From a phage, in sequence record OZ346189.1: DNA of 64,000 bases; one strand, given 5' to 3'. How positions within the stretch are numbered: position 1 is the first letter of the stretch; every line of letters starts with the position of its first letter. Under the pieces are notes generated by a model. The model was not told the origin of the DNA, made no database searches, and worked only from the letters and a program-made list of their open reading frames with translations. Positions 1 through 61,315 of the stretch are shown here, in pieces. The position numbers and the translations under genes are program-made.

Positions 1-175
1 CTTATCTGGAGCCCTGTGGGTGAAATGGTGGTACATTGCTTCTGGCAAGCTTCTAAAATGATGGGAGTCCCGTTCCAGATCACAGGTGAATACTTGTGTG
101 GTCGTAATTGGGGTAATTGTCACTAATGTAAACTATCAACACATGGAAGTGTTGTTGAGCAAAGAGGAGACTTTT

Positions 176-460
176 ATGGTAGTAGAACCAACAAAAACAT
201 TTACATCCATGACTATCCCTGTTATTATGCAGGTGGAGTGTGTTCAGGTATCTCAAGTGTGGCCTGGCACCAAAATCCCAACAGGGCCTGATTTCTTTCA
301 GGTTGGGAAAGTGTACAATGTCTGGAAGGCACCAGATTGTTACCCTTTCATTAAAGATGACCGTGGGATGCTGTGGTATCTTGGAAATGACTTGACACTG
401 CACCTTGGGAATGCTATTATTGCAGTATTCAGACTTAACAAGAAGGAGACCGATCAATGA
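176..460 (+). CDS. hypothetical protein
   Basis: ORF track 86..460 (GTG); internal ATG at 176 preceded by AAAGAGGAG RBS; stop overlaps next start (ATGA). Confidence 0.4.
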   Translation: MVVEPTKTFTSMTIPVIMQVECVQVSQVWPGTKIPTGPDFFQVGKVYNVWKAPDCYPFIKDDRGMLWYLGNDLTLHLGNAIIAVFRLNKKETDQ

Positions 461-684
461 CGACTTTGGTTAAAGCCACCTTTGTAGAAGAAAAGATGAC
501 AGACATGTCATTCTTTAAAGAAGGAAAGACCTACGAGGTTTATTCCGATAAAGCTCGTGCAAACAAAATGATTAAAGACGAGGAAGGGGTTGACTGGTAT
601 ATCTCTCACCTGGCAAACGGTGAGTATCATATCTACGGAACCACTTTGCTTGCCAAGTTTGTAGTTGTTGAAGAGGACCTATGA
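457..684 (+). CDS. hypothetical protein
   Basis: ORF with RBS, translationally coupled to neighbours. Confidence 0.5.
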   Translation: MTTLVKATFVEEKMTDMSFFKEGKTYEVYSDKARANKMIKDEEGVDWYISHLANGEYHIYGTTLLAKFVVVEEDL

Positions 685-875
685 AAGTAAAGTATCTTGC
701 TGAAGGTATGAATAGGTATTTTACCCTTGGTGAAGAATATTGGCCCTTTACAAACAACGGCGATGTCTACGTGAAAGATAATTTCGGCACGCCGTGGTTT
801 CTGCACTCTAATGGGCTGGGATACTCCATTTACTGCGGTGCAGTGAACAACACAACTCTTGCAGAGTTCGTTTAG
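681..875 (+). CDS. hypothetical protein
   Basis: ORF, start overlaps previous stop. Confidence 0.45.
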   Translation: MKVKYLAEGMNRYFTLGEEYWPFTNNGDVYVKDNFGTPWFLHSNGLGYSIYCGAVNNTTLAEFV

Positions 876-885
876 AGGAGGTAGG

Positions 886-1257
886 ATGTTAGTAAAAGGT
901 ACCCACACAGTCAAACAACGTATTGAAGTTGAGATTGATGATTGTGAGCTGAAGCATATTTTACGGTCATGCTCCAACGTTTTGCTCCTTAGTATTCTTC
1001 AGGAGCGAGCGGAGAACGAGTTCTTAAATGCATTGGCAGGCCGTCCCGGTGACTTCTGTGTGCGTAAGCGTGGTGACAACAAGTCGTGGTTGTGGGAGAT
1101 CGATGCCGACTGGGATTACCACAAAAATGAGGGTATAGATGAGCCTATTCGTGAACTGACGGACAAAGAGATTCAGATGTACAATGAAGTTTGTCATTGG
1201 GCAACACGCCAACAAATTTACCTAGACCCTGTGTGGCTGATTGAAAATAGTCGTTGA
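886..1257 (+). CDS. hypothetical protein
   Basis: ATG at 886 after GAGGAGG RBS (track ORF 859..1257). Confidence 0.5.
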   Translation: MLVKGTHTVKQRIEVEIDDCELKHILRSCSNVLLLSILQERAENEFLNALAGRPGDFCVRKRGDNKSWLWEIDADWDYHKNEGIDEPIRELTDKEIQMYNEVCHWATRQQIYLDPVWLIENSR

Positions 1258-1282
1258 CAAGAAGTAAGGTTAGATGTAAGAT
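1254..1282 (+). promoter_or_regulatory. sigma70-like promoter (TTGACA-17-TAAGAT)
   Basis: -35/-10 hexamers with 17-nt spacer upstream of ORF 1334. Confidence 0.45.
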
Positions 1283-1333
1283 ACTCCTCACAAACAGAGT
1301 ATTGATTGTTAAATAATTAAGGAGACCTCTAAG

Positions 1334-1588
1334 ATGAAAATCATGTTGAAACCAGAATGCGTTGCAAACGACCGAGCTTTTAAAGATTGCACACTTGGCG
1401 CTACTTATGAAGCAGAGTTTTGTGAGAACCCTTTGGTAAAAGCCCTTTTGGAAGAAGGGGCCCCTCTATCACAAGAAGAGCTTGATGAGCTGGAAAACTC
1501 AGCACAGTGCCTTACCTTTAAAGATGATGAAGGAGACTCTGTCTGGTGCACTGTTAACGAAGTAGTTTTTGTAAAAACTGAACATTAA
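1334..1588 (+). CDS. hypothetical protein (paralog of 1652..1912)
   Basis: ORF with AAGGAGA RBS; shares KP-x-AF(K/R)DCT and DD(E/N)GD-x-V(W/F)CT motifs with next gene. Confidence 0.5.
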   Translation: MKIMLKPECVANDRAFKDCTLGATYEAEFCENPLVKALLEEGAPLSQEELDELENSAQCLTFKDDEGDSVWCTVNEVVFVKTEH

Positions 1589-1591
1589 TAC

Positions 1592-1620
1592 TTGACAACA
1601 GCGATAGGACCTAATACAAT
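1592..1620 (+). promoter_or_regulatory. sigma70-like promoter (TTGACA-17-TACAAT)
   Basis: consensus-like hexamers upstream of ORF 1652. Confidence 0.45.
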
Positions 1621-1651
1621 GGTCCTATCAAAACGAAAGGGGACCACAGCA

Positions 1652-1912
1652 ATGACCAAACAATATCAACGAATTAAAGCCAAGGTTAAGCCAGACTATC
1701 TAGAGAAGGACTCTGCTTTTCGGGACTGCACAGCTGACAAAGTTTACACAGGGGCCGTCCTGTTGAACGATAAACTTGAAGTAGATGTGCTGGGTAAAGA
1801 GGCCGTTATCGAGGATGACAACGGTGACTGTGTTTTCTGCACCACACGAGAGCTAGAAGTCTTAGAATATTTCGGTGAAATCTTCAACTCCTTAGACGAC
1901 GAGGAAGCGTGA
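1652..1912 (+). CDS. hypothetical protein (paralog of 1334..1588)
   Basis: ATG at 1652 after AAAGGGGA RBS and its own promoter (track ORF 1592..1912). Confidence 0.5.
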   Translation: MTKQYQRIKAKVKPDYLEKDSAFRDCTADKVYTGAVLLNDKLEVDVLGKEAVIEDDNGDCVFCTTRELEVLEYFGEIFNSLDDEEA

Positions 1913-2301
1913 TGAAAAATATTTGGGATATCGATATCTTTGAAGCCTCTAAGCTTGACGGTGCTGATGGAGTGATTATGGTGTCTGATGGCAAGGCAAC
2001 ACTAACTTCCGGAGATATCATCTATGCCTTGGACGAGCTGGCGCTTCTGAAATCTACCGGTAACACTTTGGAGGAGCGTCTTCAAGGATTCGCTTTCAAA
2101 GAAGGTACAAATACAGCCATGATGTGCACCACACGGACAGTTCAGGTTGGTAACGGTGTCTATATGATTATTGCTGTGTGTCCTAAATTCAGCAACGTCA
2201 ACAAAGATGATGCTGACGCGGTCAACGATGTGGTTGTTCTCTTCGTGGGTGACGCTATGGCAGATCTGATGAATGCAGGAGAAGCAGCAAATGAAGACTG
2301 A
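1909..2301 (+). CDS. hypothetical protein
   Basis: ORF, start overlaps previous stop. Confidence 0.45.
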   Translation: MMKNIWDIDIFEASKLDGADGVIMVSDGKATLTSGDIIYALDELALLKSTGNTLEERLQGFAFKEGTNTAMMCTTRTVQVGNGVYMIIAVCPKFSNVNKDDADAVNDVVVLFVGDAMADLMNAGEAANED

Positions 2302-2593
2302 AAACATCACCCCAGCAGGGTTCTTAAAAGTATACCGTGAACTGCTATATACTACAGAGGACAGTGTTCTAGAGTATCCAGAATATCTTTTGCTGTATAA
2401 GTATCTGCAGGAGGCTGGTGAAAATCTGCCAGTTAGTGCAGAAGGTGGTCCAAACTGGATATACAGCGCATGGAGAAAGGTTGACATTCTCCCAGACCCA
2501 GGTAAAGATATGGTAGTTTGGCAGCTTATCAACAACATCGGGATTCCAATCTTTGATGAAGCTGTTAAAATCTATTTTGAACTTGACGATTAA
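2291..2593 (+). CDS. hypothetical protein
   Basis: ATG at 2291 after GGAGAAG RBS (track ORF 2273..2593). Confidence 0.45.
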   Translation: MKTENITPAGFLKVYRELLYTTEDSVLEYPEYLLLYKYLQEAGENLPVSAEGGPNWIYSAWRKVDILPDPGKDMVVWQLINNIGIPIFDEAVKIYFELDD

Positions 2594-2610
2594 TATCAGG
2601 AGACCTTAAG

Positions 2611-2856
2611 ATGACTGAAGCAGTTGCTCGCGCAGGACAGAAAGTACGTTGTGTTGAAGTAGGTTTTGGTGGCAAAGGGTGTCAAAACTTGACTCAAGGC
2701 AAGGAATATGCTGTTATCTCTGGTGGTGGCGACGAAAGTATTGTGTTCGAGGGCCACATCCTGGATGCTGAAAACTTTGAAATCTTTGACGACGATGGGG
2801 ATCCGATCACCTGCCTGCTGGACGGGAATTGGGGAACTTTCGAAGTGATTGGCTAA
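2611..2856 (+). CDS. hypothetical protein
   Basis: ORF with CAGGAGA RBS. Confidence 0.5.
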   Translation: MTEAVARAGQKVRCVEVGFGGKGCQNLTQGKEYAVISGGGDESIVFEGHILDAENFEIFDDDGDPITCLLDGNWGTFEVIG

Positions 2857-2939
2857 CAAATACCTATTGTAATTTACAGAAGGGGATGCTAAAATAGTGT
2901 CTCCTTCTATGTTGTTCAAATAAAATCGGAGATTCCATA

Positions 2940-3308
2940 ATGGAACAAATGAACGATCAAGAGTCGGTTGCGATGAACGAGCAAGAACAACCTCAAGAAT
3001 TTTTCTTAGGGTTAAGTAAAGATCAAGTGTCTCTTTTGCTAGTGCTTTCTTCTTTCATGGGAAGACTTCAGGAGCTCACACAACAACCGGAGGCTGAACA
3101 ATTATTTCAGGCTCTGCGTGAAGAAGAAAAATATCGTCGTTTGGACTATGCCTTAGGTTGGGTAGCTCAACAACGAGATATGCTGATGGCCCTCTCTGGG
3201 ACCACAAGTTTTGCAATGGGCCTGTTGGCTCAAGTTCAGGACAAATTAATTCAAGCAGGGTTTGCACACACGGCAAACACTAACGAAGAACAAGGAGACA
3301 AAGAATGA
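2940..3308 (+). CDS. hypothetical protein
   Basis: ORF with GGAGA RBS. Confidence 0.5.
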   Translation: MEQMNDQESVAMNEQEQPQEFFLGLSKDQVSLLLVLSSFMGRLQELTQQPEAEQLFQALREEEKYRRLDYALGWVAQQRDMLMALSGTTSFAMGLLAQVQDKLIQAGFAHTANTNEEQGDKE

Positions 3309-4531
3309 GCGTTATTCAACAATTCGCTAACCCGATGAATCCGCGTGAAACTGTTTTACTGGCTCACGGCATGATTAAACGCGTCAGCATCAAGCCTATC
3401 AAAGGTGCTGATCCTACAACAGGTATTAAAACCACTGTGTGGCAAGGTAAGAAAATTGAATCCAGCCACACCATCTCTTTACTGATTTCTGAACTGGATT
3501 CCTCTGATAACCTACTTCAAGGTGGTGAAGAAGTTTGGATCAGTATGGGCGATAAGCTGCTTAAACCGGGTCATCAAGACTCTGTCTCTGTTAAAATTGA
3601 TGACAAGTGGGAAACCGTAACGCCAGGATGGATCGTAAATATCCCTTTGAAGGCAAACGAGCATAACGGTAAGACCTACTACAAAGGCTCACTGGCTAAG
3701 ATGGTTAAGCTGGGTGCAGGAGAGGCTCCAGCAGCGACTCAGCAGCAAAAACAGCAACAAGGTGCACAATCACAAGGCCAGAAGCAGAAACCTCAGCAGA
3801 ATGCCAATCAGGACGTTTTACGCATCTATGGTGATGTGACTCAGATTGTTGGCAACGTGGTTACTGTAAATGACCACAAGATTGGCGAAGGTGCTATGGT
3901 TGTAACTGATGAGCAGCTTAAAGACCTGGTGGTAGGTGGTCGTGTTGCAGCCATTGTTGACAAAGACACTGGAAACATTATCAGTGGTTTCAAGGCCTAT
4001 CCTCCTAAGGCAGAGAACGGCACTCAAGGCTCCGGTGGCAAGCGTAAATCCTCTTACGACCCTATCGGTGTGGAAACGGGGCATAGCATCAATGCGTTGC
4101 AGATCATCCTGGATCGCGGGTTTAAGGTAGACGACCCACTGGGCGTGGCTAAAACACTGCACGTAGTCACCATTGAGCTTAAGAAAGAGTATGCTCAAGC
4201 CACCAACCGAACTGAAGATGAAGTAGGTGCCAGTGTCGGTAATGCGGTGTTGAACGCTTGTCGCCGTATTGACAAGAAAACGAAAGTTGATGATTTTGCA
4301 GCGGCAATTACTGCAGAAGCAAAAGATGTCTTGACTAATCTGGCTGAGCCGTTGTACGATTGGATCAAGAACGGTGCTGGGTCAACTGACCATCAAGAAC
4401 CTCAGGCTGCCAAACAGGAAGCAGCTCCACAGCAAAACACTGTAGACGCTCCTCCTGTAAATGATGGGGAAGATGACCCGATGGATCAGAATCCAGCACA
4501 GTACGCCTTTGATGATGACATCCCTTTTTAA
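3305..4531 (+). CDS. ssb: single-stranded DNA-binding protein with acidic C-terminal tail
   Basis: 408 aa; C-terminus ends DDDIPF (the E. coli SSB protein-interaction tail); Q/G-rich linker; RBS GGAGACAAAGA. Confidence 0.65.
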   Translation: MSVIQQFANPMNPRETVLLAHGMIKRVSIKPIKGADPTTGIKTTVWQGKKIESSHTISLLISELDSSDNLLQGGEEVWISMGDKLLKPGHQDSVSVKIDDKWETVTPGWIVNIPLKANEHNGKTYYKGSLAKMVKLGAGEAPAATQQQKQQQGAQSQGQKQKPQQNANQDVLRIYGDVTQIVGNVVTVNDHKIGEGAMVVTDEQLKDLVVGGRVAAIVDKDTGNIISGFKAYPPKAENGTQGSGGKRKSSYDPIGVETGHSINALQIILDRGFKVDDPLGVAKTLHVVTIELKKEYAQATNRTEDEVGASVGNAVLNACRRIDKKTKVDDFAAAITAEAKDVLTNLAEPLYDWIKNGAGSTDHQEPQAAKQEAAPQQNTVDAPPVNDGEDDPMDQNPAQYAFDDDIPF

Positions 4532-4545
4532 CAATTAGTTAACAT

Positions 4546-4575
4546 AGCCCTGCCCGAAAGGGTGGGGCATTTTTG
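4546..4575 (+). terminator. rho-independent terminator
   Basis: GC-rich hairpin (agccctgccc-gaaa-gggtggggc) followed by a T run. Confidence 0.6.
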
Positions 4576-4593
4576 TATAAGGAGATCTGAAAA

Positions 4594-5010
4594 ATGACAT
4601 TAGAAGATATCATTGTTAAACCTGAGAACTATGACCAATACAACCTGTCAACTCAATCTGTAGACCTTGGATGCGCCACAGTTAGTGCGTGGCTGGTTAA
4701 TGGAAAAGAGCTGGACAAGTGCTTAGAAGCTCACATGTCTGTTAACAAGTTTCTGGATGAAAATACTCACTGGCTTGAGGGTGCTGGAGTATATGCTTCA
4801 TGGTTGGAGAGCATGGGCTTTGACTATCAATCTGATGAAGGGTGGTGGAGCTATCTGGCTATCTGTCCAGAAACACTGCAATGCTTCATGAAATACTCTG
4901 AAGATCTTGAGTACCGAGCGGTGGTTGATAGTGCTATTGCCCGTTATAGCCGTAAACCTTTTTCCCATGACATTAAAACTGTGGAAGAATTTGTTGAAGT
5001 TTTCTGTTGA
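4594..5010 (+). CDS. hypothetical protein
   Basis: ORF with TAAGGAGA RBS. Confidence 0.5.
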   Translation: MTLEDIIVKPENYDQYNLSTQSVDLGCATVSAWLVNGKELDKCLEAHMSVNKFLDENTHWLEGAGVYASWLESMGFDYQSDEGWWSYLAICPETLQCFMKYSEDLEYRAVVDSAIARYSRKPFSHDIKTVEEFVEVFC

Positions 5011-5106
5011 CACAGGTTGAAAGGTGTGCAATTATAACTTCATAAAACGGGAGGACGCGATGAACGAAGAAAACTGGGATGTATAACTAACAGGAGACCA
5101 CTGCCC

Positions 5107-5304
5107 ATGATTTATCGAATCCGTGTAAGAGAAGATGCACCAGGCTGTTACTTTGACTGGCGTGGGTGGTGGTTTCTCCACCCAATGGATGGACTCACAG
5201 ATAGAATGCTGGATGCTGCCCTTTATACAGATACCGACATAGAATATAATCTCTATCTGAAGGACGGTATAGATAACGGTCTATTTGAAGCAATTCCTGT
5301 GTAA
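5107..5304 (+). CDS. hypothetical protein
   Basis: ORF with CAGGAGA RBS. Confidence 0.45.
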   Translation: MIYRIRVREDAPGCYFDWRGWWFLHPMDGLTDRMLDAALYTDTDIEYNLYLKDGIDNGLFEAIPV

Positions 5305-5372
5305 GAGACTGTGATAGCCATGTTTTATGATCTTCCTGTAGCACCACCACCTGTTGAACCTGGAGAACTAAG

Positions 5373-5792
5373 ATGATCTATGAAATGCCAAAACTGATTC
5401 GTGACGATGCCCAAAACCACACCATTATTATGGGTAAACGCATGAATATCCTTTGCCGTAACGATTTCTGTGGTGTAGAATACGTTGCAGACTACTTCGG
5501 TGAGAATGGTAAACACCCTGTTCAGTTCTTCCTTGACCATGAGGATAACATTATCTGGGAGTTTGAAACTGAAGATATCCGCAACCTCTTCATCTTCCTC
5601 GGTGTCAAGGTTAAGGCCAATTTCGCGGAAGGTGAGTGCGACGATTGTGGATTTTATGAGGTGACAGACTTCTATCTCCCGAGTGGCAAGAACATTTACT
5701 ATGAGAGTCACTTCGGAAACACCAACATGCCTCAAAGCTGGGAAGAATTTTTCAGTATCGTAGAAGAGGAGCTGGCATACCGTGATTATTGA
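5373..5792 (+). CDS. hypothetical protein
   Basis: ORF with CTGGAGA RBS. Confidence 0.5.
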   Translation: MIYEMPKLIRDDAQNHTIIMGKRMNILCRNDFCGVEYVADYFGENGKHPVQFFLDHEDNIIWEFETEDIRNLFIFLGVKVKANFAEGECDDCGFYEVTDFYLPSGKNIYYESHFGNTNMPQSWEEFFSIVEEELAYRDY

Positions 5793-6240
5793 TACTGTAA
5801 AGGGAGATTTAATCTCCCTTTTTAAGAGCGGTGCTGGTCACCTAATCCACGGTTGTAACTGCTTCCACACAATGGGTAAGGGCATAGCAAAACAGATTGC
5901 CCGTGAGTTTCCTCAAGCATTGTCAGCCGACAAAGAGACCAGACACGGTTGCCTAAGTAAACTGGGTGCGTTCTCCCGATGGGAGCACTTATCTCCGAGA
6001 GGTATTGTCTACGGAATCAATCTGTATACTCAGTTCTACCCAGGGCCTAATGCTGAATATTTCTCAATCCTGAAAGGCTTTGAGCTAGTCAATGAGGTAT
6101 TCGAGGGATCGACTTTACCATTCTACATCCCTAAGATCGGATGCGGCATAGGCGGTTTGAAGTGGGAGCACGTAGAGGACGTTATTAACCTCGCCACTTT
6201 TGATATAGATATTATCGTGGTGGAGTACAAAGAGTGTTGA
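5782..6240 (+). CDS. macro-domain protein (TARG1/DarG-like ADP-ribose-processing fold)
   Basis: motif HGCNCFHTMGKGIAKQIAREFP resembles the TARG1/OARD1-type macro-domain signature (HC..DC.MGAGIA..F); GTG start with GAGGAG RBS. Confidence 0.5.
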   Translation: MIIDTVKGDLISLFKSGAGHLIHGCNCFHTMGKGIAKQIAREFPQALSADKETRHGCLSKLGAFSRWEHLSPRGIVYGINLYTQFYPGPNAEYFSILKGFELVNEVFEGSTLPFYIPKIGCGIGGLKWEHVEDVINLATFDIDIIVVEYKEC

Positions 6241-6266
6241 CAGCTGACTTTTGAGATGGTATAGTC
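6238..6266 (+). promoter_or_regulatory. sigma70-like promoter (TTGACA-17-TATAGT)
   Basis: hexamers upstream of ORF 6297. Confidence 0.45.
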
Positions 6267-6296
6267 ACCACAACGATTGAGAGAGGGAGCACCACT

Positions 6297-6497
6297 ATGG
6301 AGACTAAAATCTTAATTCTGGCTGTGATAGATACGACCGAAGGGGCCGTGTTCGAATCTGCAGGAGGGTATTTCTACCTGCCCTACGGAAAAATAACTTC
6401 CGAACCGAGTAAAGATTCAATCCTTAAAGTGTTCCCTTGTGCTTTCTGGCTGGAGATTCTGGTAGAAGATTGCAGAGGATTGGGGAGAGAATTATGA
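6297..6497 (+). CDS. hypothetical protein
   Basis: ORF with GAGGGAG RBS. Confidence 0.45.
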   Translation: METKILILAVIDTTEGAVFESAGGYFYLPYGKITSEPSKDSILKVFPCAFWLEILVEDCRGLGREL

Positions 6498-6688
6498 GAA
6501 ACAAGAAAGAGCTTTACTCTGGCGAGTGGATCAACGATCAACAGGTCGGAGAGGTAACCTGCTTCCGGTGTTTTACTCGGTACAATCTTAAAACTGCACC
6601 AAAAAGTGTTCCAAAGACTGACGGTTATTACATAAAAGAACCTCATTGCCCAAAATGTAAATGCCGATTGTACTGGAGCAATCTATAA
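6494..6688 (+). CDS. hypothetical zinc-ribbon protein
   Basis: ATG at 6494 after GGGGAGAG RBS; CxxC...CxxC pairs (CFRC, CPKC). Confidence 0.45.
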   Translation: MRNKKELYSGEWINDQQVGEVTCFRCFTRYNLKTAPKSVPKTDGYYIKEPHCPKCKCRLYWSNL

Positions 6689-6692
6689 GAGG

Positions 6693-6720
6693 TTGACATC
6701 TGAAAACTGCAGTGTATAGT
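6693..6720 (+). promoter_or_regulatory. sigma70-like promoter (TTGACA-16-TATAGT)
   Basis: hexamers upstream of ORF 6752. Confidence 0.45.
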
Positions 6721-6751
6721 ATACACATAAACTAACAGAGAGCGATGTATT

Positions 6752-6943
6752 ATGGTAATTTTTAACCGGGATGGTATCATAGTTAGACAGCACCCGTTCC
6801 TTGAATACTATCAAATTGAGCAATGGTGCTACGGGGATTGCAGTCACTCCTATGGGCAAAGTTGGGGATATCGTACAGTTTTTGAATCAACAGACCTTGA
6901 CAAAGTAAGACAGAAAGTTTTAGAACTTATTAACAACAAGTGA
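6752..6943 (+). CDS. hypothetical protein
   Basis: ORF. Confidence 0.4.
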   Translation: MVIFNRDGIIVRQHPFLEYYQIEQWCYGDCSHSYGQSWGYRTVFESTDLDKVRQKVLELINNK

Positions 6944-6952
6944 GTATGATAT

Positions 6953-7285
6953 ATGGTAACATTAGAAAGACGTAAAGCTATCGCCGCCACACTGGCAGAC
7001 ATCTTTTGGGATTGCAACTTAAAAGATACCAGAAATTGTGGCGCATCTGTAGATGTATTATTCCCACGGCCCACCATTGTTGCAATGGGAAACCTGTTAA
7101 ACGTAGTGTACGGAGCATGGGACAAAGAAGGTGGATTCTATATCTGGCAACCTGACTACAGAGCCTGGAAAGAGGTAAGGGGTGCGGTTGACTTTGGGCC
7201 TGCAAGTGCTAAGATGGATGGCTGGGAAATTTATGTTGGAAACGACATGAAGCTGAAAGGCGAGATTGTTTACTGGTTACCTTAA
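6953..7285 (+). CDS. hypothetical protein
   Basis: ORF. Confidence 0.45.
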   Translation: MVTLERRKAIAATLADIFWDCNLKDTRNCGASVDVLFPRPTIVAMGNLLNVVYGAWDKEGGFYIWQPDYRAWKEVRGAVDFGPASAKMDGWEIYVGNDMKLKGEIVYWLP

Positions 7286-7305
7286 GAGAATGCAGGAGAT
7301 AAAGT

Positions 7306-7551
7306 ATGAACAAAGGGTGGACATTTGTAGACGGCGTTGAAAACATGCCTCTAGGAAAGTATATTGTAGCCATGGCAGATGAGAATGGCAAGGTTGATTT
7401 CGGAGCTTGCGAGGTTGTTCTTGCAGGATCTGGTGACTATGCTCACAAAACTGGGATAATTAACGGTCATTTCTACTTTGATTACAACCCTGTTGTGGCG
7501 TATATGGCTATGCCAGAGTTCGAGCTCCCAAAGGAGGGTGCGGATGTTTAA
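7306..7551 (+). CDS. hypothetical protein
   Basis: ORF with CAGGAGA RBS. Confidence 0.45.
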   Translation: MNKGWTFVDGVENMPLGKYIVAMADENGKVDFGACEVVLAGSGDYAHKTGIINGHFYFDYNPVVAYMAMPEFELPKEGADV

Positions 7552-7741
7552 GCTTAAATCTGCATGGAACATCGCTGTGGGGGACGAGATCCGCATCCCA
7601 GGTGGAAAGACCATTATGAAGATATCTCGTATCGAGTACGAAGGTGATCGTGTATTTCATATCTTTGCAGAAGATGGTCGAGAAATTTATATACAGGCAG
7701 GCTCTCACATCTATATTCGTAAGAAAGGGGACGACAAATGA
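7544..7741 (+). CDS. hypothetical protein
   Basis: ATG at 7544 after AAGGAGGG RBS (track ORF 7478..7741). Confidence 0.45.
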   Translation: MFKLKSAWNIAVGDEIRIPGGKTIMKISRIEYEGDRVFHIFAEDGREIYIQAGSHIYIRKKGDDK

Positions 7742-8067
7742 CAGAGATCATCATTTCAACTGCAGGGTATGTGTTCCTGACAATCATTGCACTGACCATT
7801 TTGGTGGTGGTATATGGAATTGTTATTCTCCCTATTCTTGAGACAATTAGTTTGTGTCGGTGTTGGAGAAAGGCTTACGGTCCACAGCCGTGGAAGGACT
7901 GGCCCCACCTGGTGCACATAGCGTTCTCTTATGCTTATGATCACGCCAGCAGTGCATGCATAACCGGGTATCACGCCCACAACTGGAGCTGGGAAGGGTT
8001 GAGGAAATGGAATGTTACAAAGACCATACCTCTGCGCATGTACAAACCTAAAAACAAAGACAGCTGA
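7738..8067 (+). CDS. hypothetical membrane protein
   Basis: hydrophobic N-terminal segment; start overlaps previous stop. Confidence 0.45.
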   Translation: MTEIIISTAGYVFLTIIALTILVVVYGIVILPILETISLCRCWRKAYGPQPWKDWPHLVHIAFSYAYDHASSACITGYHAHNWSWEGLRKWNVTKTIPLRMYKPKNKDS

Positions 8068-8099
8068 TACTTGAAAATCCCTGGCATATCAAGTGTAAG

Positions 8100-8600
8100 G
8101 AGGATTTCTAAAATGGATTTCCTCCTTTTGATATTTCACCGGGCCAGATATTTTAAAATTCTTAGAAAATCAGAAAATGGATCGAAAACTAAAATGGATT
8201 TTTCAAGACAGGCACGATAAGATGTGCTGCTCATTCTATCGTTCGCACCGTACTTTAAGTCACTATTCCAGATTTTTCCGCACATACTCTCACCCTTCTA
8301 CCAGAACTTTCCCAGCTTACCTCTGACCTTTTATAACAATAAGTCCATTATTATCAGAAAGTTTCGGCACATCTCTTTCGGTACTCGATCTGTTTTTCAT
8401 TTCAAAGACCTGATTTTCTGAAAATTTTTCTCGATAAATTTCTTAGTACTCGATCTGTTTTTCGTTTTCTGAATCGGATTTTCTGGAAATCGTTCCAGCC
8501 CTCGACCTGAAATTTTTGGGGACGAAATCGATTTTTCGTTTTCAGAAATGGATTTTTAAAATTTCTATATGGGAATATTTTATGGGATACTGTTTTATAG
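8100..8600. repeat. iteron-rich AT-rich non-coding region
   Basis: repeated short motifs (aaatggattt x4, tactcgatctgtttttc x2, cgatttttcgttttc) with no convincing ORF. Confidence 0.5.
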
Positions 8601-8617
8601 GAAATTGTTACGGAGGG

Positions 8618-8635
8618 TAATTAGCATGCTAATTA
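8618..8635. promoter_or_regulatory. perfect 18-bp palindrome TAATTAGCATGCTAATTA
   Basis: perfect inverted repeat seen directly; operator-like. Confidence 0.4.
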
Positions 8636-8671
8636 AATTTATTAAATGCGAGGAGTTCTCATTTAGAATTT

Positions 8672-8745
8672 TGAATGATAATCATTCTCGTTTGCAGAAT
8701 AACGGGCAGGCCCGGTGATTGTCTCCCGGCCCCTGTTGCCCCGGC
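8672..8745 (+). repeat. repeat element R1 (core GGCAGGCCCGGTGATTGTCTCCC at 8705..8727)
   Basis: related direct copy R2 at 8803..8880; inverted copy of the core at 18492..18514 (22/23 nt identical). Confidence 0.55.
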
Positions 8746-8802
8746 TTGTTATTATAGTATCACACAGGACAAAGAAAGCAAGGATTTTTTGCATAAATTT
8801 TT

Positions 8803-8880
8803 AAATGATAATGATAACCGTTCTCATTTTATGCAGCGCCCATCCCCGGTGGTTGTCTCCCCCGTCACCGGTGCCTGCCG
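8803..8880 (+). repeat. repeat element R2 (R1-like)
   Basis: shares AATGATAAT...TCTC.TTT...CCGGTG.TTGTCTCCC with R1. Confidence 0.5.
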
Positions 8881-9344
8881 TCCTTTCGATAGGTATATTG
8901 TGCCACCTGGCGGGGCCGCTGTCAACACTTCTTCAAAAATTTTTTCTAACATAATGCACCAACCGCTGCAACCTGGCGGGGCCAGCCTGGCAGGACCTGA
9001 CTGACCAGGTAGGAGAGAGTGAAAACTTGCAAACCTGGTAGGCCTATGCTACAGGGCAGGTAACAATTGAAGAGGAGGTACAAAAATGAAAAGTAATATA
9101 ATCCCCTGGAAAATGTAGCGATCAACGCCGCTGAAGTTATCACCCTGGTTGAAAAGGCTATGGCGGGAGCGTTGGAACATAAAGAAGAGTACGAAAAATG
9201 ATGGTTAACCTGGCAGGGGCGGCGGCTGGAGAATTCTTCCCAAAAAATAATTCTAACTAATGGTTGACAGCTCGGAGAGTTCTGTTATTCTTATCCTCGC
9301 AAGGTGAACAACACCACACTAATTAACAGAGAGGATAAAAAATC

Positions 9345-19783: not shown

Positions 19784-19801
19784 TTTTTTAACTGAATTAT
19801 C

Positions 19802-19826
19802 AAGGGGCTTAGGCCCCTTTCTTTTT
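19802..19826 (+). terminator. rho-independent terminator ending the plus-strand block
   Basis: hairpin AAGGGGC-tta-GCCCCTT followed by TTTCTTTTT. Confidence 0.65.
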
Positions 19827-20212
19827 GTCTGCTCTTCCTCCTACCACAAACGGCCCAGCCTGGCAAGTGGAATAATTGACTAGCCATCAATCCCACACAC
19901 TGTACAAATATACATGGAAAATAACTATTGCATAATTTTTCATTGTGTGGTAGCAGGTCCATTTTTACCCGTTTTCTCTCTCAAAATTGCACGTAATGCC
20001 GCTATTGCACAAAATTTAACCTGATGCACATCTTCAATATCTTGTCAACAACTAAAAATCTTTATAAGTCATACACTTACACACTCACAAAAGCGTGTTC
20101 TACGTGAAAAATCGAGTATAACTATAGCCGCCAGATCTCAGAATTTACAAAGGCCATCATTAAAGCTTCAGTAAAATCAGTCATTCCTCACCTCTTGTTA
20201 GTCACTATACTA

Positions 20213-20476
20213 TCATTTATCCTTGTCGTCAAGAACTTTTTTAAATCTTTCAGGGATATCTCCCGTTCTTAGATAGTTCATGACCTCGCAAGGTTCCCAC
20301 TTGAATTTCTTACAGAGCAGGGCGGCTGAGATTGTTTCATTGCGAAAAGAAAGGATATTAATATCCCACTCTGAGAACCCCAACTTCCGAAGGGTAGCTA
20401 CAGAAATCCTCACCGCAACCCAGCAGCAAAAACATGCAACAAACGCCACTGCTACAACCCACATCAGGATGTTCAT
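20213..20476 (-). CDS. hypothetical membrane protein
   Basis: ORF with N-terminal TM segment. Confidence 0.4.
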   Translation of the reverse strand: MNILMWVVAVAFVACFCCWVAVRISVATLRKLGFSEWDINILSFRNETISAALLCKKFKWEPCEVMNYLRTGDIPERFKKVLDDKDK

Positions 20477-20565
20477 ATAAGCACCTTACTGAAATACAAG
20501 ACACAGTGTTAAGGTTACTGACCAGCAAATAATTAACAGTGCCGTTGCAACCTTGGCAAGATTTA

Positions 20566-20853
20566 TCATAGTGCCTCTAAGATTTCATATCCTTCGGGTC
20601 GGAATACAAGCCACTCCGTGGCTCCGTTTGGTCGATACGCTTTATACAGAACAACCTGGTCTCGGCACATGCACATGGCTACATAGTTTTCATCCACACC
20701 TGCAGCCTGCATTGCATCTTCTTCTCCGGCAACTGCTTTGCTTACAACTTCCTTGGTAGGCAGGTGTGCGATCAGCTCGTCACCATCATTAATTCCAAAA
20801 TGGCTGAGTTCGCCGTTGGTATCTTTAATCTTAATCTTAACCAGATCTTTCAT
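20566..20853 (-). CDS. hypothetical small protein (family A-like)
   Basis: ORF in a tandem minus-strand array; C-terminal E-x-x-E-A-L resembles the family A tail. Confidence 0.45.
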   Translation of the reverse strand: MKDLVKIKIKDTNGELSHFGINDGDELIAHLPTKEVVSKAVAGEEDAMQAAGVDENYVAMCMCRDQVVLYKAYRPNGATEWLVFRPEGYEILEAL

Positions 20854-21182
20854 TAGTCTTCCCCCAGGTTCAAAGGTCCTAAGATTTCATATGCCAGATT
20901 AGAAGTTACAAGAGGGTCTTCTGCGTCTTTAGTATTATACCACCCGTGAATAACCAGAGTCCCACTTTGTTTCATGTCCAACTGGAACTCTTCTGCCGTT
21001 TCCTCATCCAGCTCCAAGATTTCCATAAGGTATTTGATGTTAGGGAGGTATGCAGCTGTTACAGTCCCCTCTACCAGACCTTCAGGCCAACCTACATCTG
21101 GATGACAAGTAGGAACCAGATTGGTCAGCTTAATGGTGTACGCTTTTTCTGCACGAGCCTTCAGTAACGGGTCAATCTTCAT
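20853..21182 (-). CDS. hypothetical protein
   Basis: ORF, coupled start/stop. Confidence 0.45.
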   Translation of the reverse strand: MKIDPLLKARAEKAYTIKLTNLVPTCHPDVGWPEGLVEGTVTAAYLPNIKYLMEILELDEETAEEFQLDMKQSGTLVIHGWYNTKDAEDPLVTSNLAYEILGPLNLGED

Positions 21183-21532
21183 TATTCGTCCTCCTCTTCG
21201 GTACCTGCTTCCAGTAATAAGTTAAGAATATCTTCTGCACAAGGCTCATAGAACTCTTGGCCTTCATTATCGATGATTTTGTAGTCATCTCCGCGAATAA
21301 TCAGAGGATCACTCTCAAAATTATCGAGACCTTTAACAACGACAACACGATCGATTGCCATCATTGTAAGAACTTTATCGACATCTTCCTCTGCTACACC
21401 ATACTGCAGCAGAATGTCTTTGGTAGGAGGAACAGCATCCACCACAACACCGTTACCAAAACCTTCCGGTAAGTTAGCTAAAATATCTTCCGGAACCACA
21501 CTAACATCAAAACCAGTAATTTCTACTTTCAT
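21182..21532 (-). CDS. hypothetical acidic protein
   Basis: ORF, coupled. Confidence 0.45.
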   Translation of the reverse strand: MKVEITGFDVSVVPEDILANLPEGFGNGVVVDAVPPTKDILLQYGVAEEDVDKVLTMMAIDRVVVVKGLDNFESDPLIIRGDDYKIIDNEGQEFYEPCAEDILNLLLEAGTEEEDE

Positions 21533-21793
21533 TTACAGCACCTCTTCGTCAACTACTTCATAAAAATGGCCTGGGATTGCAATAGCGTTCTCACCTTCAC
21601 CTACAAACACAGTTCCGTCAAGAATCAACATCATAAGAGTTTCTGGAATATCCTCTTCCTGAACGTTGCCAAAACCTTTAATCAGCTCGTAGGTTGGAAG
21701 ATTTACCTCTAAGATGTCACCATCTTTAGAGCGGAAATCAACACCATCCTGAATCTCTGCCATTTCAAGGTTTTTCAGTTTAATCTTCATCAA
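21533..21793 (-). CDS. hypothetical small protein (family A-like)
   Basis: MMKIKLKNL... ends EVVDEEVL. Confidence 0.45.
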   Translation of the reverse strand: MMKIKLKNLEMAEIQDGVDFRSKDGDILEVNLPTYELIKGFGNVQEEDIPETLMMLILDGTVFVGEGENAIAIPGHFYEVVDEEVL

Positions 21794-21869
21794 TCAGTCT
21801 CCCGTCTTGTTAAGATGAAGGTATTATTTCACACAGGGTTGGCGTTGTCAACACCTGTGTGCAAGAAAA

Positions 21870-22265
21870 TTACTGAAACAGTGCGGATAAATTACCTTCT
21901 GGTGGGAACTTATCTGCCAAAAACGGTGTTAGCACAGTAGCCTTCTGAAGATCTGGGGTCCACTCGTTGTTCAGAACATCCCAGTAGTACGCAATGTTGC
22001 TGTGTGGGTGCCGCATTACGAACTTTTTCCCTTCGTAGTCATCTGAAACCTCTACAGAAGAAATAACAACAGAATCTTCAAGGGTTTCTTCATAGAAAGA
22101 TCCACCTTCAAATTTCCAACGAGATGCAAGAGCTCCTGCCTTGAACGCTGCAGATAACGGACTGTCTGCAAGAACATACATTTCTTGCACTCTGTCGCTG
22201 CGATCTTTGCTTCTTACGTTGTATACAGTATCTGAGCTATACTCAACACGGTATAGGCTTACCAT
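21870..22265 (-). CDS. hypothetical protein, paralog family B
   Basis: shares the HP-x-S...YW....W-TP motif with 24072..24470. Confidence 0.5.
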   Translation of the reverse strand: MVSLYRVEYSSDTVYNVRSKDRSDRVQEMYVLADSPLSAAFKAGALASRWKFEGGSFYEETLEDSVVISSVEVSDDYEGKKFVMRHPHSNIAYYWDVLNNEWTPDLQKATVLTPFLADKFPPEGNLSALFQ

Positions 22266-22597
22266 TACCGCACCTCCTCAATAACTTCCACATCTGAGCC
22301 CACCACAAATGCAAAAGGACAGGTTTCATGAAAGACATCCGGATCGCCGCCAAGCTTGCTAACAATCTCTCCACCACTAATAAACACAAGCTCACCGATA
22401 TTCATCAGATTGCTGAAATAGTACCCATAATGATTAAAGAATGCAGCAGGGTCAGGTAGACTAGTAGCCTCAAGCACTACATCAGTTGAGGTTACTTTCT
22501 TATCATAACCTCTCGCCTTTTGAGATGCAAGATCTGCAGAATCCTCAGGCGACCGGAGATGCACAGGAATTGTTTCACCAATAAAGCGTACTTTCAT
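22265..22597 (-). CDS. hypothetical small protein (family A-like)
   Basis: internal start MKVRFIG at 22597 (track ORF 22265..22624); ends DVEVIEEVR. Confidence 0.45.
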   Translation of the reverse strand: MKVRFIGETIPVHLRSPEDSADLASQKARGYDKKVTSTDVVLEATSLPDPAAFFNHYGYYFSNLMNIGELVFISGGEIVSKLGGDPDVFHETCPFAFVVGSDVEVIEEVR

Positions 22598-54703: not shown

Positions 54704-55465
54704 TTAAAGTTCCATAAAGTTTTCTACAGTTTCAATAAATGCTTTATCAGAGAAAGCGTCAACAGCACCGTTAAACCATACAGGGATCCCGCGATCCTCA
54801 TATTGATAAAGGTCGCTACGTGAAATGCCACTTCCATCTGCACTCTGCGAGTCATACTTGTTTACAATCAGCAGTTTTGTGCCTTTACAAGTAGCAGGAA
54901 ACAATTCCCAGTTAAAATTAATAACTGTGTTAGAACAACCTACTAGGATCACCATATCATTGCTTGTGAGAGATGTCAACAGGTCATACATGTCTGTATA
55001 CTTAGGAGCAACCTCACCGAAGAACACTACATTGGGCTTAACCCAGGTATACTTGCCTGTATCTACCTCCGTGTATCCGATATTTTTAATTACATCATTA
55101 CCTTCAGCATCTTCGTAGGTGATTTCAGGCAAATACCCGTGGACATGTAAAATATCTTCATGTTTTACACCAGCACGCTCCAGCAAATCATCTACATTGG
55201 TGGTAAGGTTGATCACACGACCAGACCAGCGGGAATACCACTCAGCGATCCGAAGATGTGCAAGGTTAGGATCAACACTGCCCAGAGCTACACGACGTGC
55301 ATTGTAAAAGTCATGCACCTTATAGTAATTCTTGGCAAAGGTGTGAATGTTGCACACCTCATCGATGCTGAAATTCTCCCACATTGCAGTGCTACCAGAT
55401 CGGAAAGTGGGAATACCAGATTCAGCGCTCAAACCAGCACCGGAGATAATAATCAGTCGTCGCAT
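54704..55465 (-). CDS. Sir2-family (sirtuin-like) NAD-dependent protein
   Basis: N-terminal GAGLSAESGIPTFRS matches the sirtuin NAD-binding signature (GAG.S..SGIP.FR); no obvious CxxC zinc ribbon. Confidence 0.65.
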   Translation of the reverse strand: MRRLIIISGAGLSAESGIPTFRSGSTAMWENFSIDEVCNIHTFAKNYYKVHDFYNARRVALGSVDPNLAHLRIAEWYSRWSGRVINLTTNVDDLLERAGVKHEDILHVHGYLPEITYEDAEGNDVIKNIGYTEVDTGKYTWVKPNVVFFGEVAPKYTDMYDLLTSLTSNDMVILVGCSNTVINFNWELFPATCKGTKLLIVNKYDSQSADGSGISRSDLYQYEDRGIPVWFNGAVDAFSDKAFIETVENFMEL

Positions 55466-55473
55466 AAGTGTCC

Positions 55474-55824
55474 TCAGTAGATGTTTTGTTTAATCTCTAT
55501 TCCAAACTTCTTGAATGAGTCAGCAGCAAGCATAAATTTACGAGCTGCCGATGGATTAGAAGTATGCACGAAAATAATCACGTTGTCAATAAGTGGTGGC
55601 TTTCCGAATACAAGTTTCTCCTCTAGCGCAGAGAAGCAGTCGTACCCTTCAAGCACTTCACCTAGATCATTGTCAAAATACCACTCAGATACGCGTCTGT
55701 AGAGCTTTCTCTTATCATTAAGAAAATCCATAAACTCAGAAGAATTCTTTAGCCACAGAGCGTCTGGGAGTCCATAATCTGACGGATCTCTAAAATCATC
55801 AAGCCACACAATCCACTTCTTCAT
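55474..55824 (-). CDS. receiver-like (CheY-fold) small protein
   Basis: KKWIVWLDDFRD, FDNDLGE, IIFVHTSNP and a late K resemble the receiver-domain layout; weak. Confidence 0.35.
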   Translation of the reverse strand: MKKWIVWLDDFRDPSDYGLPDALWLKNSSEFMDFLNDKRKLYRRVSEWYFDNDLGEVLEGYDCFSALEEKLVFGKPPLIDNVIIFVHTSNPSAARKFMLAADSFKKFGIEIKQNIY

Positions 55825-56756
55825 TGCATATAGTCCTCGTTGTGGAAATAGTAGTCCAGTATCTCACGACGCTCCTGCTCTAATAAGCAATTCCACACAT
55901 CTTCTGTATAGTTGCTACGAATAAATTTTACCATACCGTAAAACTCTTCGTCAACACGTTTAAAGATATCATCATCCCAAATCTTCCAAGCTTTACCCCT
56001 CATTACTGCCTTCTGTGCCAGATAGTATGGAGACTTGATCTTCAGCTGCAGATCATAAGGGTAGTAAGGCTTACGAATCATATACCCTTCACCTCTTGTT
56101 TCTGCAGCTAATTCTTTTGCATAGCTGAACGGAATTTCACGCACAGTGTTAGGACGTTTTGCACCAAGGTATTTGGCAATCCCATCTAAAGCTGCTTCTG
56201 GTAGCATTATTCCAGAATCATTATATCTGCAACCTATCAAATATGCGCCATGGTCTTCTTGAACAATATGCGGATCTGAAGGGTGACAAATTTCAAACAT
56301 GAATGTCATGTTTTCATTGCCCATAACCTTCTTGATAAGATCTAAATTACCACATTGCTCTTGGATGGTTTCCTTTGCAAGGTTACAATATGGAGAATCA
56401 AGAGACCCGGTTGTTGAGAACAATAGGTCACCTTTATGAGATGATACCACACCAAGGAATCCGTTCTTTTTCTCTACCGCAGTCACAAGCTTATTGTCAG
56501 GCAGGTTGGTGGAGTTTTCTCCCAAGTTAAACACTTTTGTGAAGGGCCATGCCACAACATTTCCTTCATTACCTACAACAATGCCTCGGCACTCCAGTAA
56601 ACGAGGGGACAAATGCCATAAATTGTTGTAAAATACTTTTCTAGCATATTTATAGATCTTTAACCCGAGATCTGGGTAATACCTACTGGTTGCAAGACCT
56701 TTGTCAACTAGGTCGTCTGCATTAAAATACTTCATTATATGTTCCTCATTTGTCAT
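55821..56756 (-). CDS. RNA ligase-like nucleotidyltransferase
   Basis: ligase-superfamily motifs KKNGF (motif I variant), EGYMIR (motif IV), LKIK (motif V); adjacent to polynucleotide kinase. Confidence 0.5.
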   Translation of the reverse strand: MTNEEHIMKYFNADDLVDKGLATSRYYPDLGLKIYKYARKVFYNNLWHLSPRLLECRGIVVGNEGNVVAWPFTKVFNLGENSTNLPDNKLVTAVEKKNGFLGVVSSHKGDLLFSTTGSLDSPYCNLAKETIQEQCGNLDLIKKVMGNENMTFMFEICHPSDPHIVQEDHGAYLIGCRYNDSGIMLPEAALDGIAKYLGAKRPNTVREIPFSYAKELAAETRGEGYMIRKPYYPYDLQLKIKSPYYLAQKAVMRGKAWKIWDDDIFKRVDEEFYGMVKFIRSNYTEDVWNCLLEQERREILDYYFHNEDYMQ

Positions 56757-56856
56757 TTTGTCAGTCTATCCTGCCACACAAATAACTTAGTGTCAACACT
56801 TGAAATTAACAAAACAGTTAGGTATACTACCGTTGAAATTAAAACGGAGGGTCGCT

Positions 56857-57267
56857 ATGTCTAAAATGCTATATATCGTGCGTGGTCTACCAGGGTCTGG
56901 CAAATCAACACTGGCAAATGCGCTATCTTTAGAGGGTCTGTATCCACATTTTGAGAACGACATGTTCTGGTATGACGATGACGGCAATTACAACTGGGAT
57001 GCAAGTAAAGTAACACTCGCAGCAAAATGGTGCAAAGATAACGTAGAAGATATGATGCGTATGGGATACGACCGTATCGTGGTAAGTAATACGTTTACAA
57101 AAGAAAAACATGTGCAGGAATATGTTGACATGGCAATCACTCATGGGTATAGTTATACCGTGATCGTGGTTGAAAACCGCCACGGCAATAAAAGCATTCA
57201 TGATGTTCCAGACAAGGTTGTGGATCGTATGGAACGCCAGCTTAAAAACTGCATTAAACTTAAATGA
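56857..57267 (+). CDS. polynucleotide 5'-kinase (T4 Pnk kinase-domain-like)
   Basis: P-loop GLPGSGKST and C-terminal HDVPDKVVDRM resembling T4 Pnk; ACGGAGGG RBS. Confidence 0.65.
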   Translation: MSKMLYIVRGLPGSGKSTLANALSLEGLYPHFENDMFWYDDDGNYNWDASKVTLAAKWCKDNVEDMMRMGYDRIVVSNTFTKEKHVQEYVDMAITHGYSYTVIVVENRHGNKSIHDVPDKVVDRMERQLKNCIKLK

Positions 57268-57274
57268 GGAATGT

Positions 57275-57829
57275 ATGAAATACTTTGTAACAAGCGACAC
57301 ACACTTTCTCCACCAGCGGGTCATGGAGTTTGATTCATGTCAAAAACACAGATCTCAGTATGATCACAATCTTGACAGTATGAATGCGGGAATCATCACC
57401 AAGTGGAACTCTGTTGTGTCACCTGCAGACACTGTGTTCCACTTGGGAGATATTGCATGCACTAATGATAAGAATATCAACAAATTGCTCCCAGATATTC
57501 TAAATATGTTGAACGGACATATTATTCTTGTTCGTGGCAACCATGACACAAGGACGACTGTCAAAATTATGAAAGAGTTCGGTCATGAGGTTGTAGATTA
57601 TTACGAGCTTCGCCACAACAAGAATTTGATCTGTATGAGCCATTACCAGTTTGCAAAGTGGAACAGAAAGCCTCACGGATCAGTCCAACTGTTCGGTCAT
57701 GCTCACGGAACCACACAACAGTTGTTTGGCAGGCAGCTTGATGTCGGTTGGGATGTGTGGGGGAGACTCTTACCATTAGAAGAGGCATACCGTATTGCAA
57801 TGAGTTTTGATATTGACAGCAGGGAGTAA
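57275..57829 (+). CDS. calcineurin-like metallophosphoesterase
   Basis: motifs SDTHF, GDIA, GNHD. Confidence 0.65.
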   Translation: MKYFVTSDTHFLHQRVMEFDSCQKHRSQYDHNLDSMNAGIITKWNSVVSPADTVFHLGDIACTNDKNINKLLPDILNMLNGHIILVRGNHDTRTTVKIMKEFGHEVVDYYELRHNKNLICMSHYQFAKWNRKPHGSVQLFGHAHGTTQQLFGRQLDVGWDVWGRLLPLEEAYRIAMSFDIDSRE

Positions 57830-60742: not shown

Positions 60743-60817
60743 GCCCTGTTAGCTTAGTGGATAAAGCAGCGGCCTTCTAAGCCGTTGACACTGGTTCGAG
60801 TCCAGTACGGGGTGCCA
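60743..60817 (+). tRNA. tRNA-Arg (anticodon TCT)
   Basis: hand-folded cloverleaf: acceptor GCCCTGT/ACGGGGT, anticodon stem GCGGC/GCCGT with loop CTTCTAA, T-arm ACTGG-TTCGAGT-CCAGT, encoded CCA. Confidence 0.65.
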
Positions 60818-61210: not shown

Positions 61211-61308
61211 AGCTAGGTAAGCCCTTTGGCAAGGGCGAGGATTTTTAATCCTGAAAATAGACGAGGTAGTCGTTGAATACATAGGTGGTTCGATTCCATC
61301 ACCTAGCA
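61211..61308 (+). tRNA. atypical tRNA-like sequence (anticodon loop reads TTTTTAA, possibly Lys-TTT) with an approximately 30-nt insertion in the variable region
   Basis: acceptor GCTAGGT/ACCTAGC, D-arm GCCC/GGGC and T-arm GGTGG-TTCGATT-CCATC are recognisable; anticodon stem has only 4 bp; no encoded CCA. Confidence 0.3.
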
Positions 61309-61315
61309 CCTTTTT

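Follow-up and report, generated by a model that had tools for sequence, protein, structure and literature searches.

An orphan macrodomain protein of a Vequintavirus belongs to the Tk.4/AdfM family, carries a glutamine at the position of the catalytic lysine and probably counters DarT2

The gene described here encodes a stand-alone macrodomain protein of a Vequintavirus. We consider it probable that this protein is an ADP-ribosyl-glycohydrolase of the Tk.4/AdfM family, an orphan which protects replicating phage DNA from DarT2. Its fold, structural class, family membership and active-site residue pattern were established in this analysis. As for its role, the most likely one by analogy with phage T4 is that the Vequintavirus copy counters DarT2. 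Thereby a likely anti-DarTG2 function is assigned to a gene that mostly goes by 'hypothetical protein' in Vequintavirus records. Since Vequintaviruses are candidates for therapy owing to their broad host range, their resistance to host defenses is of practical interest.

The gene and its genomic surroundings

The window, i. e. the whole stretch of 64,000 nucleotides that was analyzed, comes from a Vequintavirus, an rV5-like myovirus of E.coli. The macro gene is located at positions 5782..6240 on the + strand and encodes 152 amino acids, with a GTG start and a TGA stop in the ORF list. In the surrounding 3 kb, identity to Escherichia phage MaxTheCat (BASEL Bas57) amounts to 98.6%, and about 120 records reach 80% or more; besides the prevailing label, a few of these name the gene 'macro domain protein' or 'O-acetyl-ADP-ribose deacetylase'. 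It lies 3' of the DNA polymerase gene within a long series of small ORFs on the + strand. For its ten neighbors, PHROG and Pfam searches yielded no function in any case and revealed neither an ART domain nor a DarT-like gene. Thus the macro protein is an orphan and not one half of a toxin-antitoxin pair. No ART gene is annotated in the window. Truncated copies of the macro gene were found on otherwise full-length phage contigs of about 135 kb (P0017, P0062), as is expected for an accessory gene.

A Shine-Dalgarno-like sequence, GAGGAG, can be read 10 nt 5' of the GTG (5766..5771, + strand). The macro ORF overlaps by 11 nt with the upstream ORF (5373..5792, + strand), which codes for a 139 aa member of the function-unknown family PHROG 8157 and is an annotated CDS in MaxTheCat. 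The two genes are probably co-transcribed and translationally coupled. The N-terminal sequence MIIDTVKGDLI is the same as in RB49 Tk.4, and alignment with T4 Tk.4 (MIVKYIKGDIV) is likewise possible from residue 1. The Shine-Dalgarno-like sequence, the overlap and the alignment from residue 1 support the GTG at 5782 as the start. The GenBank start of Pr121LW, which lies 81 nt farther upstream, is unsupported by the N-terminal alignment with RB49 and T4.

A consensus scan revealed an enrichment of sigma-70-like matches in positions 1..9000 (30 versus 16.7 +/- 3.3 expected). With this density of sigma-70-like promoters, early transcription of the macro gene by the host polymerase is plausible. 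According to the same scan, the nearest strong promoter match 5' of the ORF group at 5107, 5373 and 5782 is a candidate at 5007..5035 (+ strand; TTGACA-17-AATTAT, TG extended). Another candidate, TTGACA-17-TATAGT (6237..6265, + strand; 11/12), overlaps the stop codon of the macro gene and would open the next transcription unit. An intrinsic-terminator-like hairpin followed by a T-run (4547..4568, + strand) was picked up by consensus scan 3' of ORF 3305..4531 and is predicted to delimit the upstream unit.

Macro fold and class

The preliminary description of this DNA had seen a macro-domain signature of the TARG1/OARD1 type in the gene. Both the ORF and the motif, HGCNCFHTMGKGIAKQIAREFP (residues 23-44; 5848..5913, + strand), were confirmed, the signal being far above chance. 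The motif comprises the nearly invariant H23, the invariant G24 and N26, and the phosphate-binding loop G32-x-G34-I-A. The profile search proposed in that description gave a match to Pfam Macro (PF01661) with 28.5 bits, above the gathering cutoff of 22 (E=1.6e-6), and a match to PHROG 335 with E=2.9e-60. In NCBIfam and PADLOC the only matches were DarG models (7e-13 and 3e-14, respectively), which were also the sole defense-related matches.

When the single sequence was compared with the PDB, the closest solved relative was the Mtb DarG macrodomain (5m3i, E=8e-8), followed by yeast Poa1p, Bacteroides BT1257, Streptomyces SCO6735, T.aquaticus DarG and human TARG1. With a family profile built from 82 homologs, the best matches were BT1257 (8e-19) and SCO6735 (1e-16), then Mtb DarG, TARG1 and Poa1p, spanning 1e-19 to 1e-14. 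The first 15 matches of this profile all belonged to these same proteins (BT1257, SCO6735, DarG, TARG1 and Poa1p; 1e-19 to 6e-10). TTHA0132 was reached at 9e-5 and viral nsp3-type macrodomains at no better than 0.013.

The structural comparison likewise bore out the expected fold. An AlphaFold2 model computed on the alignment of the 82 homologs had a mean pLDDT of 96.7 and a pTM of 0.91 and showed a mixed sheet with helices. In a Foldseek search against the PDB, TARG1 was the top match (4j5r, TM 0.78/0.84), and Poa1p, DarG, BT1257 and SCO6735 came next. At E<=1e-3 this search gave 165 matches, of which the 50 listed were macrodomains or serine hydrolases designed on macrodomain scaffolds. The results confirm a macro fold of the ALC1-like class (TARG1, DarG, SCO6735, Poa1p) and not of the MacroD, PARG or viral nsp3 types.

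A glutamine at the position of the catalytic lysine

The active site was examined in two MAFFT alignments (A1 and A3), in the alignment of the 82 homologs (A2) and in HMMER profile alignments. The TARG1 sequence used in A1 and A3 matches the one in the PDB alignment; for SCO6735, BT1257 and Mtb DarG, fragments from the output of the PDB search were used. In A1, A3 and the profile alignment, Q84, which closes the strand end N80-L-Y-T-Q84 (6019..6033, + strand), falls on the position of the catalytic lysine, i. e. K84 of TARG1 and K80 of T.aquaticus DarG, where SCO6735 has Gln85. In the same three alignments G124 takes the position of D125 of TARG1. It is part of the second glycine-rich (diphosphate/distal ribose) loop, P117-K-I-G-C-G-I-G-G125 (6130..6156, + strand), which was delimited from the alignments. 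N26 has its counterparts in N27 of SCO6735, N22 of T.aquaticus DarG and N23 of PhiKZ AdfM. Both Q84 and N26 are predicted to lie in the pocket, judging by how the sequence and the family profile align with solved structures.

Conservation within the family is high at these sites. Q84, N80, N26, G24, G34 and G120 are invariant in the 82 homologs, whose identity goes as low as about 30%. H23, C27, T83 and G125 are nearly invariant. In A2, P117, I119, G120, G122 and G125 of the second loop are conserved.

The preliminary description had tied its claim to a predicted macro fold and to the presence of the catalytic and binding residues. The fold is indeed predicted. However, the residues known to be catalytic in TARG1 (K84 and D125) and in DarG (K80) (PMC9411070) are not present in the phage protein, which has Q84 and G124 instead. 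This does not make it inactive, because the Gln-type enzyme SCO6735 is active on the same substrate: it outpaces DarG and TARG1 in clearing the thymidine-linked ADP-ribose made by DarT from ssDNA, is inactive on guanine-linked ADP-ribose and rescues E.coli from DarT (PMC9411070). Gln85 of SCO6735 is essential, as the Q85A and Q85E variants are inactive, and N27S is nearly inactive; a water-mediated mechanism has been proposed for it, with the glutamine positioning the distal ribose (PMC9411070). Judged by these alignments, the phage protein is a member of the Gln-type branch of the ALC1-like class.

Membership in the Tk.4/AdfM family

The annotated tblastn matches of the protein are gene tk.4. 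Over 99% of the length, it shares 69.5% identity with RB49 Tk.4 (about 69-70%) and 39-41% with T4 Tk.4. In the reverse search, T4 and RB49 Tk.4 match only 5782..6237 in the window. The motifs HGCNCFHTMG, NLYTQFxPGPN (NLYTQFQPGPN in T4) and P(K/R)IG are common to the Vequintavirus protein and T4 Tk.4. As T4 Tk.4 carries HGCNCFHTMG and NLYTQFQPGPN, it is also of the Gln type. By sequence, the window protein thus represents the T4 Tk.4/AdfM family (PHROG 335) in Vequintavirus.

The likeness to T4 Tk.4 extends to size (155 versus 152 aa), to the stand-alone, single-copy arrangement and to the common motifs including the glutamine. Unlike the Vequintavirinae gene, however, T4 tk.4 belongs to Straboviridae and is surrounded by vs, regB and tk genes. 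None of these is found here, where the flanks are function-unknown PHROGs. The DarTG2 phenotype is known for T4 only.

This phenotype comes from transposon sequencing of T4 (HIDEN-SEQ), in which tk.4 was the sole significant depleted gene on a DarTG2 host, and from a clean tk.4 knockout, which was sensitized to DarTG2 (10.1101/2025.11.20.689424). The gene was named adfM, 'anti-DarT factor Macrodomain', in November 2025; that Tk.4 removes ADP-ribose from DNA is an inference of the authors, who do not discuss the Lys/Gln difference (10.1101/2025.11.20.689424). Some Vequintavirinae (Bas60-62) additionally encode a NADAR enzyme against DarTG1. A literature search for Vequintavirus together with DarTG returned nothing relevant.

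Of 50,697 phage records searched by tblastn, 2,812 contain the macro protein, with one place per genome for the annotated tk.4 matches. The lineages include T-even-like phages, Felixounaviruses, Pakpunaviruses, Ackermannviridae and Vequintavirinae, among others.

Proposed function and alternatives

The preliminary description had suggested that an early phage macrodomain could reverse DarT-based immunity of the host. Support for this now comes through the genetics of the T4 orthologue tk.4/adfM, from which we infer the activity of the window protein. During infection of E.coli with DarTG2, DarT2 would ADP-ribosylate thymidines in single-stranded phage DNA and thereby block replication. The macro protein, probably made early from host-type promoters, would hold the ADP-ribose in the macro cleft formed by the loops G32-x-G34 and G120-C-G-I-G-G125, with N26 and Q84 positioning the distal ribose. 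The bond between ribose and thymine would then be hydrolyzed in a water-mediated and lysine-independent reaction, as proposed for SCO6735. ADP-ribose would be released and the intact base restored, so that replication could proceed.

A natural correlate speaks in favor of protection from DarT2: phage T5 is DarTG2-sensitive and serves as the standard sensitive phage (10.1101/2025.11.20.689424), and it has no detectable macro homolog. Counted against it were the identity of only about 40% to T4 Tk.4, the missing catalytic lysine of DarG and TARG1, the absence of the longer mobile loop of SCO6735 and BT1257 and the pI of 6.05. The class is also promiscuous, acting on Glu/Asp-linked ADP-ribose of proteins and on U-ADPr RNA too, and this was likewise counted against.

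An unlikely alternative is that the protein cleans up soluble ADP-ribose derivatives, i. e. acts as an ADP-ribose-1''-phosphate phosphatase or O-acyl-ADP-ribose deacylase similar to Poa1p. Its substrates would be by-products of RNA repair by the phage sirtuin, RNA ligase and polynucleotide kinase, or of NAD-consuming defenses of the host. The labels of PHROG 335 and of GenBank ('phosphatase', 'A1pp motif', 'O-acetyl-ADP-ribose deacetylase') point in this direction, but 'phosphatase' is an old motif-based name and does not derive from an assay. Poa1p is among the best matches in sequence and fold and has I-H23-x-C-N26-C in common with the phage protein. Furthermore, the same genome contains a sirtuin whose neighbors are a phosphoesterase, an RNA ligase and a polynucleotide kinase. 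This is the 'phage V5' module, for which Iyer et al. predict a use of NAD in RNA end repair; in their view, soluble ADP-ribose derivatives are the chief targets of phage Macro domains.

Yet the sirtuin module is about 49 kb away from the macro gene and on the opposite strand. T5 has a sirtuin (57% identity) without a detectable macro protein; the sirtuin occurs in 1,023 records as compared with 2,812 for the macro protein, and the lineage spectra differ. An obligate link between the macro gene and the sirtuin/RNA-repair cluster is thus ruled out by the distribution. T4 is not known to have a sirtuin, and no Tequatrovirus appeared in a spread sample of the sirtuin records. Moreover, no genetic phenotype other than sensitivity to DarTG2 is known in the family. 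Clean-up of soluble derivatives and protection from DarT2 are not mutually exclusive.

That the protein removes ADP-ribose not from DNA but from RNA or proteins, and in this way counters other ADP-ribosyltransferase defenses or toxins or reverses modifications made by the phage itself, is distinctly improbable. U-ADPr on ssRNA is a further substrate of TARG1, DarG and SCO6735, Glu/Asp-linked ADP-ribose on proteins is removed by SCO6735 and TARG1, and a family present in 2,812 phage records is perhaps too widespread to serve against one defense system. However, SCO6735 strongly prefers DNA over protein, and the T4 gene scored on DarTG2 alone among the tested conditions. The window has no annotated ART, and RNA ADP-ribosylation at adenine of the CmdT type has so far been described as irreversible.

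A non-catalytic action, in which the protein would inhibit DarT2 stoichiometrically or soak up signals derived from ADP-ribose, is highly improbable. Some macrodomains are readers only, the dead variants SCO6735 Q85A, DarG K80A and TARG1 K84A remain inhibitors of DarT in vitro through interaction (PMC9411070), and AdfB of ICP1 neutralizes DarT, probably through direct binding. But N26, Q84 and both glycine loops, which the Gln-type enzyme requires for catalysis, are invariant over 82 diverse homologs, an enzyme-like pattern, and the C-terminal DarT-binding domain of DarG is absent.

Comparison with known macrodomain systems

The anti-defense role of the family has been in the literature since 2025, and PhiKZ followed in 2026 as a parallel case; the gene is therefore of a kind already known and does not represent a new class of system. 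The sole new point is that throughout the Tk.4/AdfM family, to judge from the alignments, a glutamine of the SCO6735 type replaces the lysine of DarG and TARG1. In consequence, inhibitors or mechanistic models based on K80 of DarG may not transfer to this family.

DarG proper has the same fold (macrodomains of Mtb, 5m3i, and T.aquaticus, 5m31/5m3e; TM about 0.75), the conserved asparagine and likewise a glycine at the position of TARG1 D125. Nevertheless the phage protein is not a DarG. With the NCBIfam model NF048014 it scored 48.5 bits, far short of the cutoff (250), and covered only positions 2-143 of 338, and the PADLOC match was limited to positions 3-141 of 329. The phage protein ends at residue 152 and so leaves no room for the C-terminal domain, there is no adjacent darT, and the catalytic lysine, which follows a conserved threonine in T.aquaticus DarG, is replaced by the invariant Gln84. 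Assignment to TARG1/OARD1, which is of similar size and also has a histidine opening the first motif, was rejected on account of the missing Lys84/Asp125 dyad. Poa1p shares the IHxCNC motif but has a large insertion. It presumably has no glutamine at the position of Q84, which we take as a lead only.

SCO6735 and BT1257 (PDB 5e3b and 2fg1) have the His-x-Cys-Asn motif in common with the phage protein, and also the asparagine and glutamine of the strand end, which reads A-N-M-I-G-Q there, the glutamine being at the position of the catalytic lysine. Q85 and N27 of SCO6735 correspond to Q84 and N26, which are both invariant, so that the Gln/Asn feature of the SCO6735/BT1257 type is present. SCO6735, too, is an orphan with no partner toxin; it hydrolyzes dT-ADPr DNA and neutralizes DarT. 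Both, however, are cellular and not phage proteins and share only 22-27% identity with the phage protein. Their mobile loop, which clamps DNA, exceeds that of DarG and TARG1 by five residues, and the phage protein lacks this extra length: after Q84, FYPGPN stands against HGIYKDSKGLPP of BT1257 with a gap of six residues, which gives a loop length like that of DarG and TARG1. K89 of SCO6735 has no counterpart either. The phage protein is mildly acidic (pI 6.05), whereas SCO6735 and BT1257 have a pI of 8.7-9.9 and the DarG macrodomain is basic as well. As a discriminator for DNA binding the pI is uninformative, since the proven AdfM of PhiKZ is also acidic.

PhiKZ gp104, named AdfM as well (2026), removes ADP-ribose made by DarT2 from DNA in vitro (PMC13309987). 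It resembles the window protein in its structural class, in being an orphan macrodomain encoded by a phage and in its proposed task. However, this chimallivirus protein is of the Lys type (N23/K78, as in DarG) and is imported into the phage nucleus. The identity between the two is about 19% (tblastn E=0.023 in the window). On these grounds PhiKZ AdfM is assigned to a separate lineage which by coincidence bears the same name.

As the Tk.4/AdfM family is of the Gln type, phages seem to have turned two macrodomain lineages of different mechanism against DarT. A tentative possibility goes further: the Tk.4-type macrodomains of about 2,800 phage genomes could as a whole be a separate Gln-type lineage with a lysine-independent mechanism, recruited independently of the chimallivirus AdfM and not derived from captured DarGs. 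Their substrates could then extend beyond DNA modified by DarT2 to U-ADPr RNA, ADP-ribosylated proteins and soluble products of the sirtuin module, which would make them multi-purpose erasers of ADP-ribose. By its defining features the window protein corresponds neither to DarG nor to TARG1, and in its predicted mechanism it resembles SCO6735.

Probable unannotated genes in the counterpart of a region intolerant of transposon insertion

In the record of Escherichia phage MaxTheCat (Bas57), a close relative, the counterpart of window 19784-22287 carries no annotation and appears as intergenic. The equivalent stretch of about 2 kb in Bas54, another Vequintavirus, tolerated zero transposon insertions in the HIDEN-SEQ preprint (10.1101/2025.11.20.689424). 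Within the window's version lie six abutting minus-strand ORFs (21870..22265, 21533..21793, 21182..21532, 20853..21182, 20566..20853 and 20213..20476), each of which has a full-length match, at 1e-56 to 1e-75, to a PHROG of unknown function. A non-coding element would be the other reading of this stretch; here an Rfam search gave no match, a tRNA search found none, and only weak repeats are present. The stretch probably consists of unannotated genes, and these are possibly essential.

Relatives and naming of the macrodomain protein

The Vequintavirus macrodomain protein (5782-6240) shares 69.5% identity with Tk.4 of the Krischvirus RB49 (2501-2956 in the RB49 sequence, L005), whereas its identity to T4 Tk.4 is only about 40%. 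This difference suggests that unrelated lineages of myoviruses have exchanged the gene laterally. The sole neighbour recognisable by Pfam is a small ORF two genes downstream (6494-6685), which matches the "Phage zinc binding domain" (PF23903, 8e-23).

T4 Tk.4, which is of the Gln-type, was named AdfM in a 2025 preprint (10.1101/2025.11.20.689424), and the Lys-type PhiKZ gp104 was likewise named AdfM (Cell Rep 2026, PMC13309987). Two unrelated phage macrodomain lineages share one name, which causes confusion when annotation is transferred.

tRNA cluster and sirtuin neighbourhood

Seven tRNA genes are clustered at 60743-61555. For one of them (61212..61310, 99 nt) ARAGORN reports a four-base anticodon, "atcc", and assigns no amino acid. 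Its MaxTheCat counterpart is a 97-nt feature annotated as tRNA-Lys. The tRNA may contain an intron or be of an unusual kind.

A sirtuin-domain protein (54704..55465, minus strand), which has 57% identity with the phage T5 protein T5.102, is encoded together with an RNA ligase (55821..56756, minus strand), a polynucleotide kinase (~56857..57267, plus strand) and a phosphoesterase (ending at 57829, plus strand). This gene set (54704-57829) corresponds to the sirtuin-centred neighbourhood of "phage V5", which Iyer et al. predicted to be an NAD-dependent RNA-repair system.
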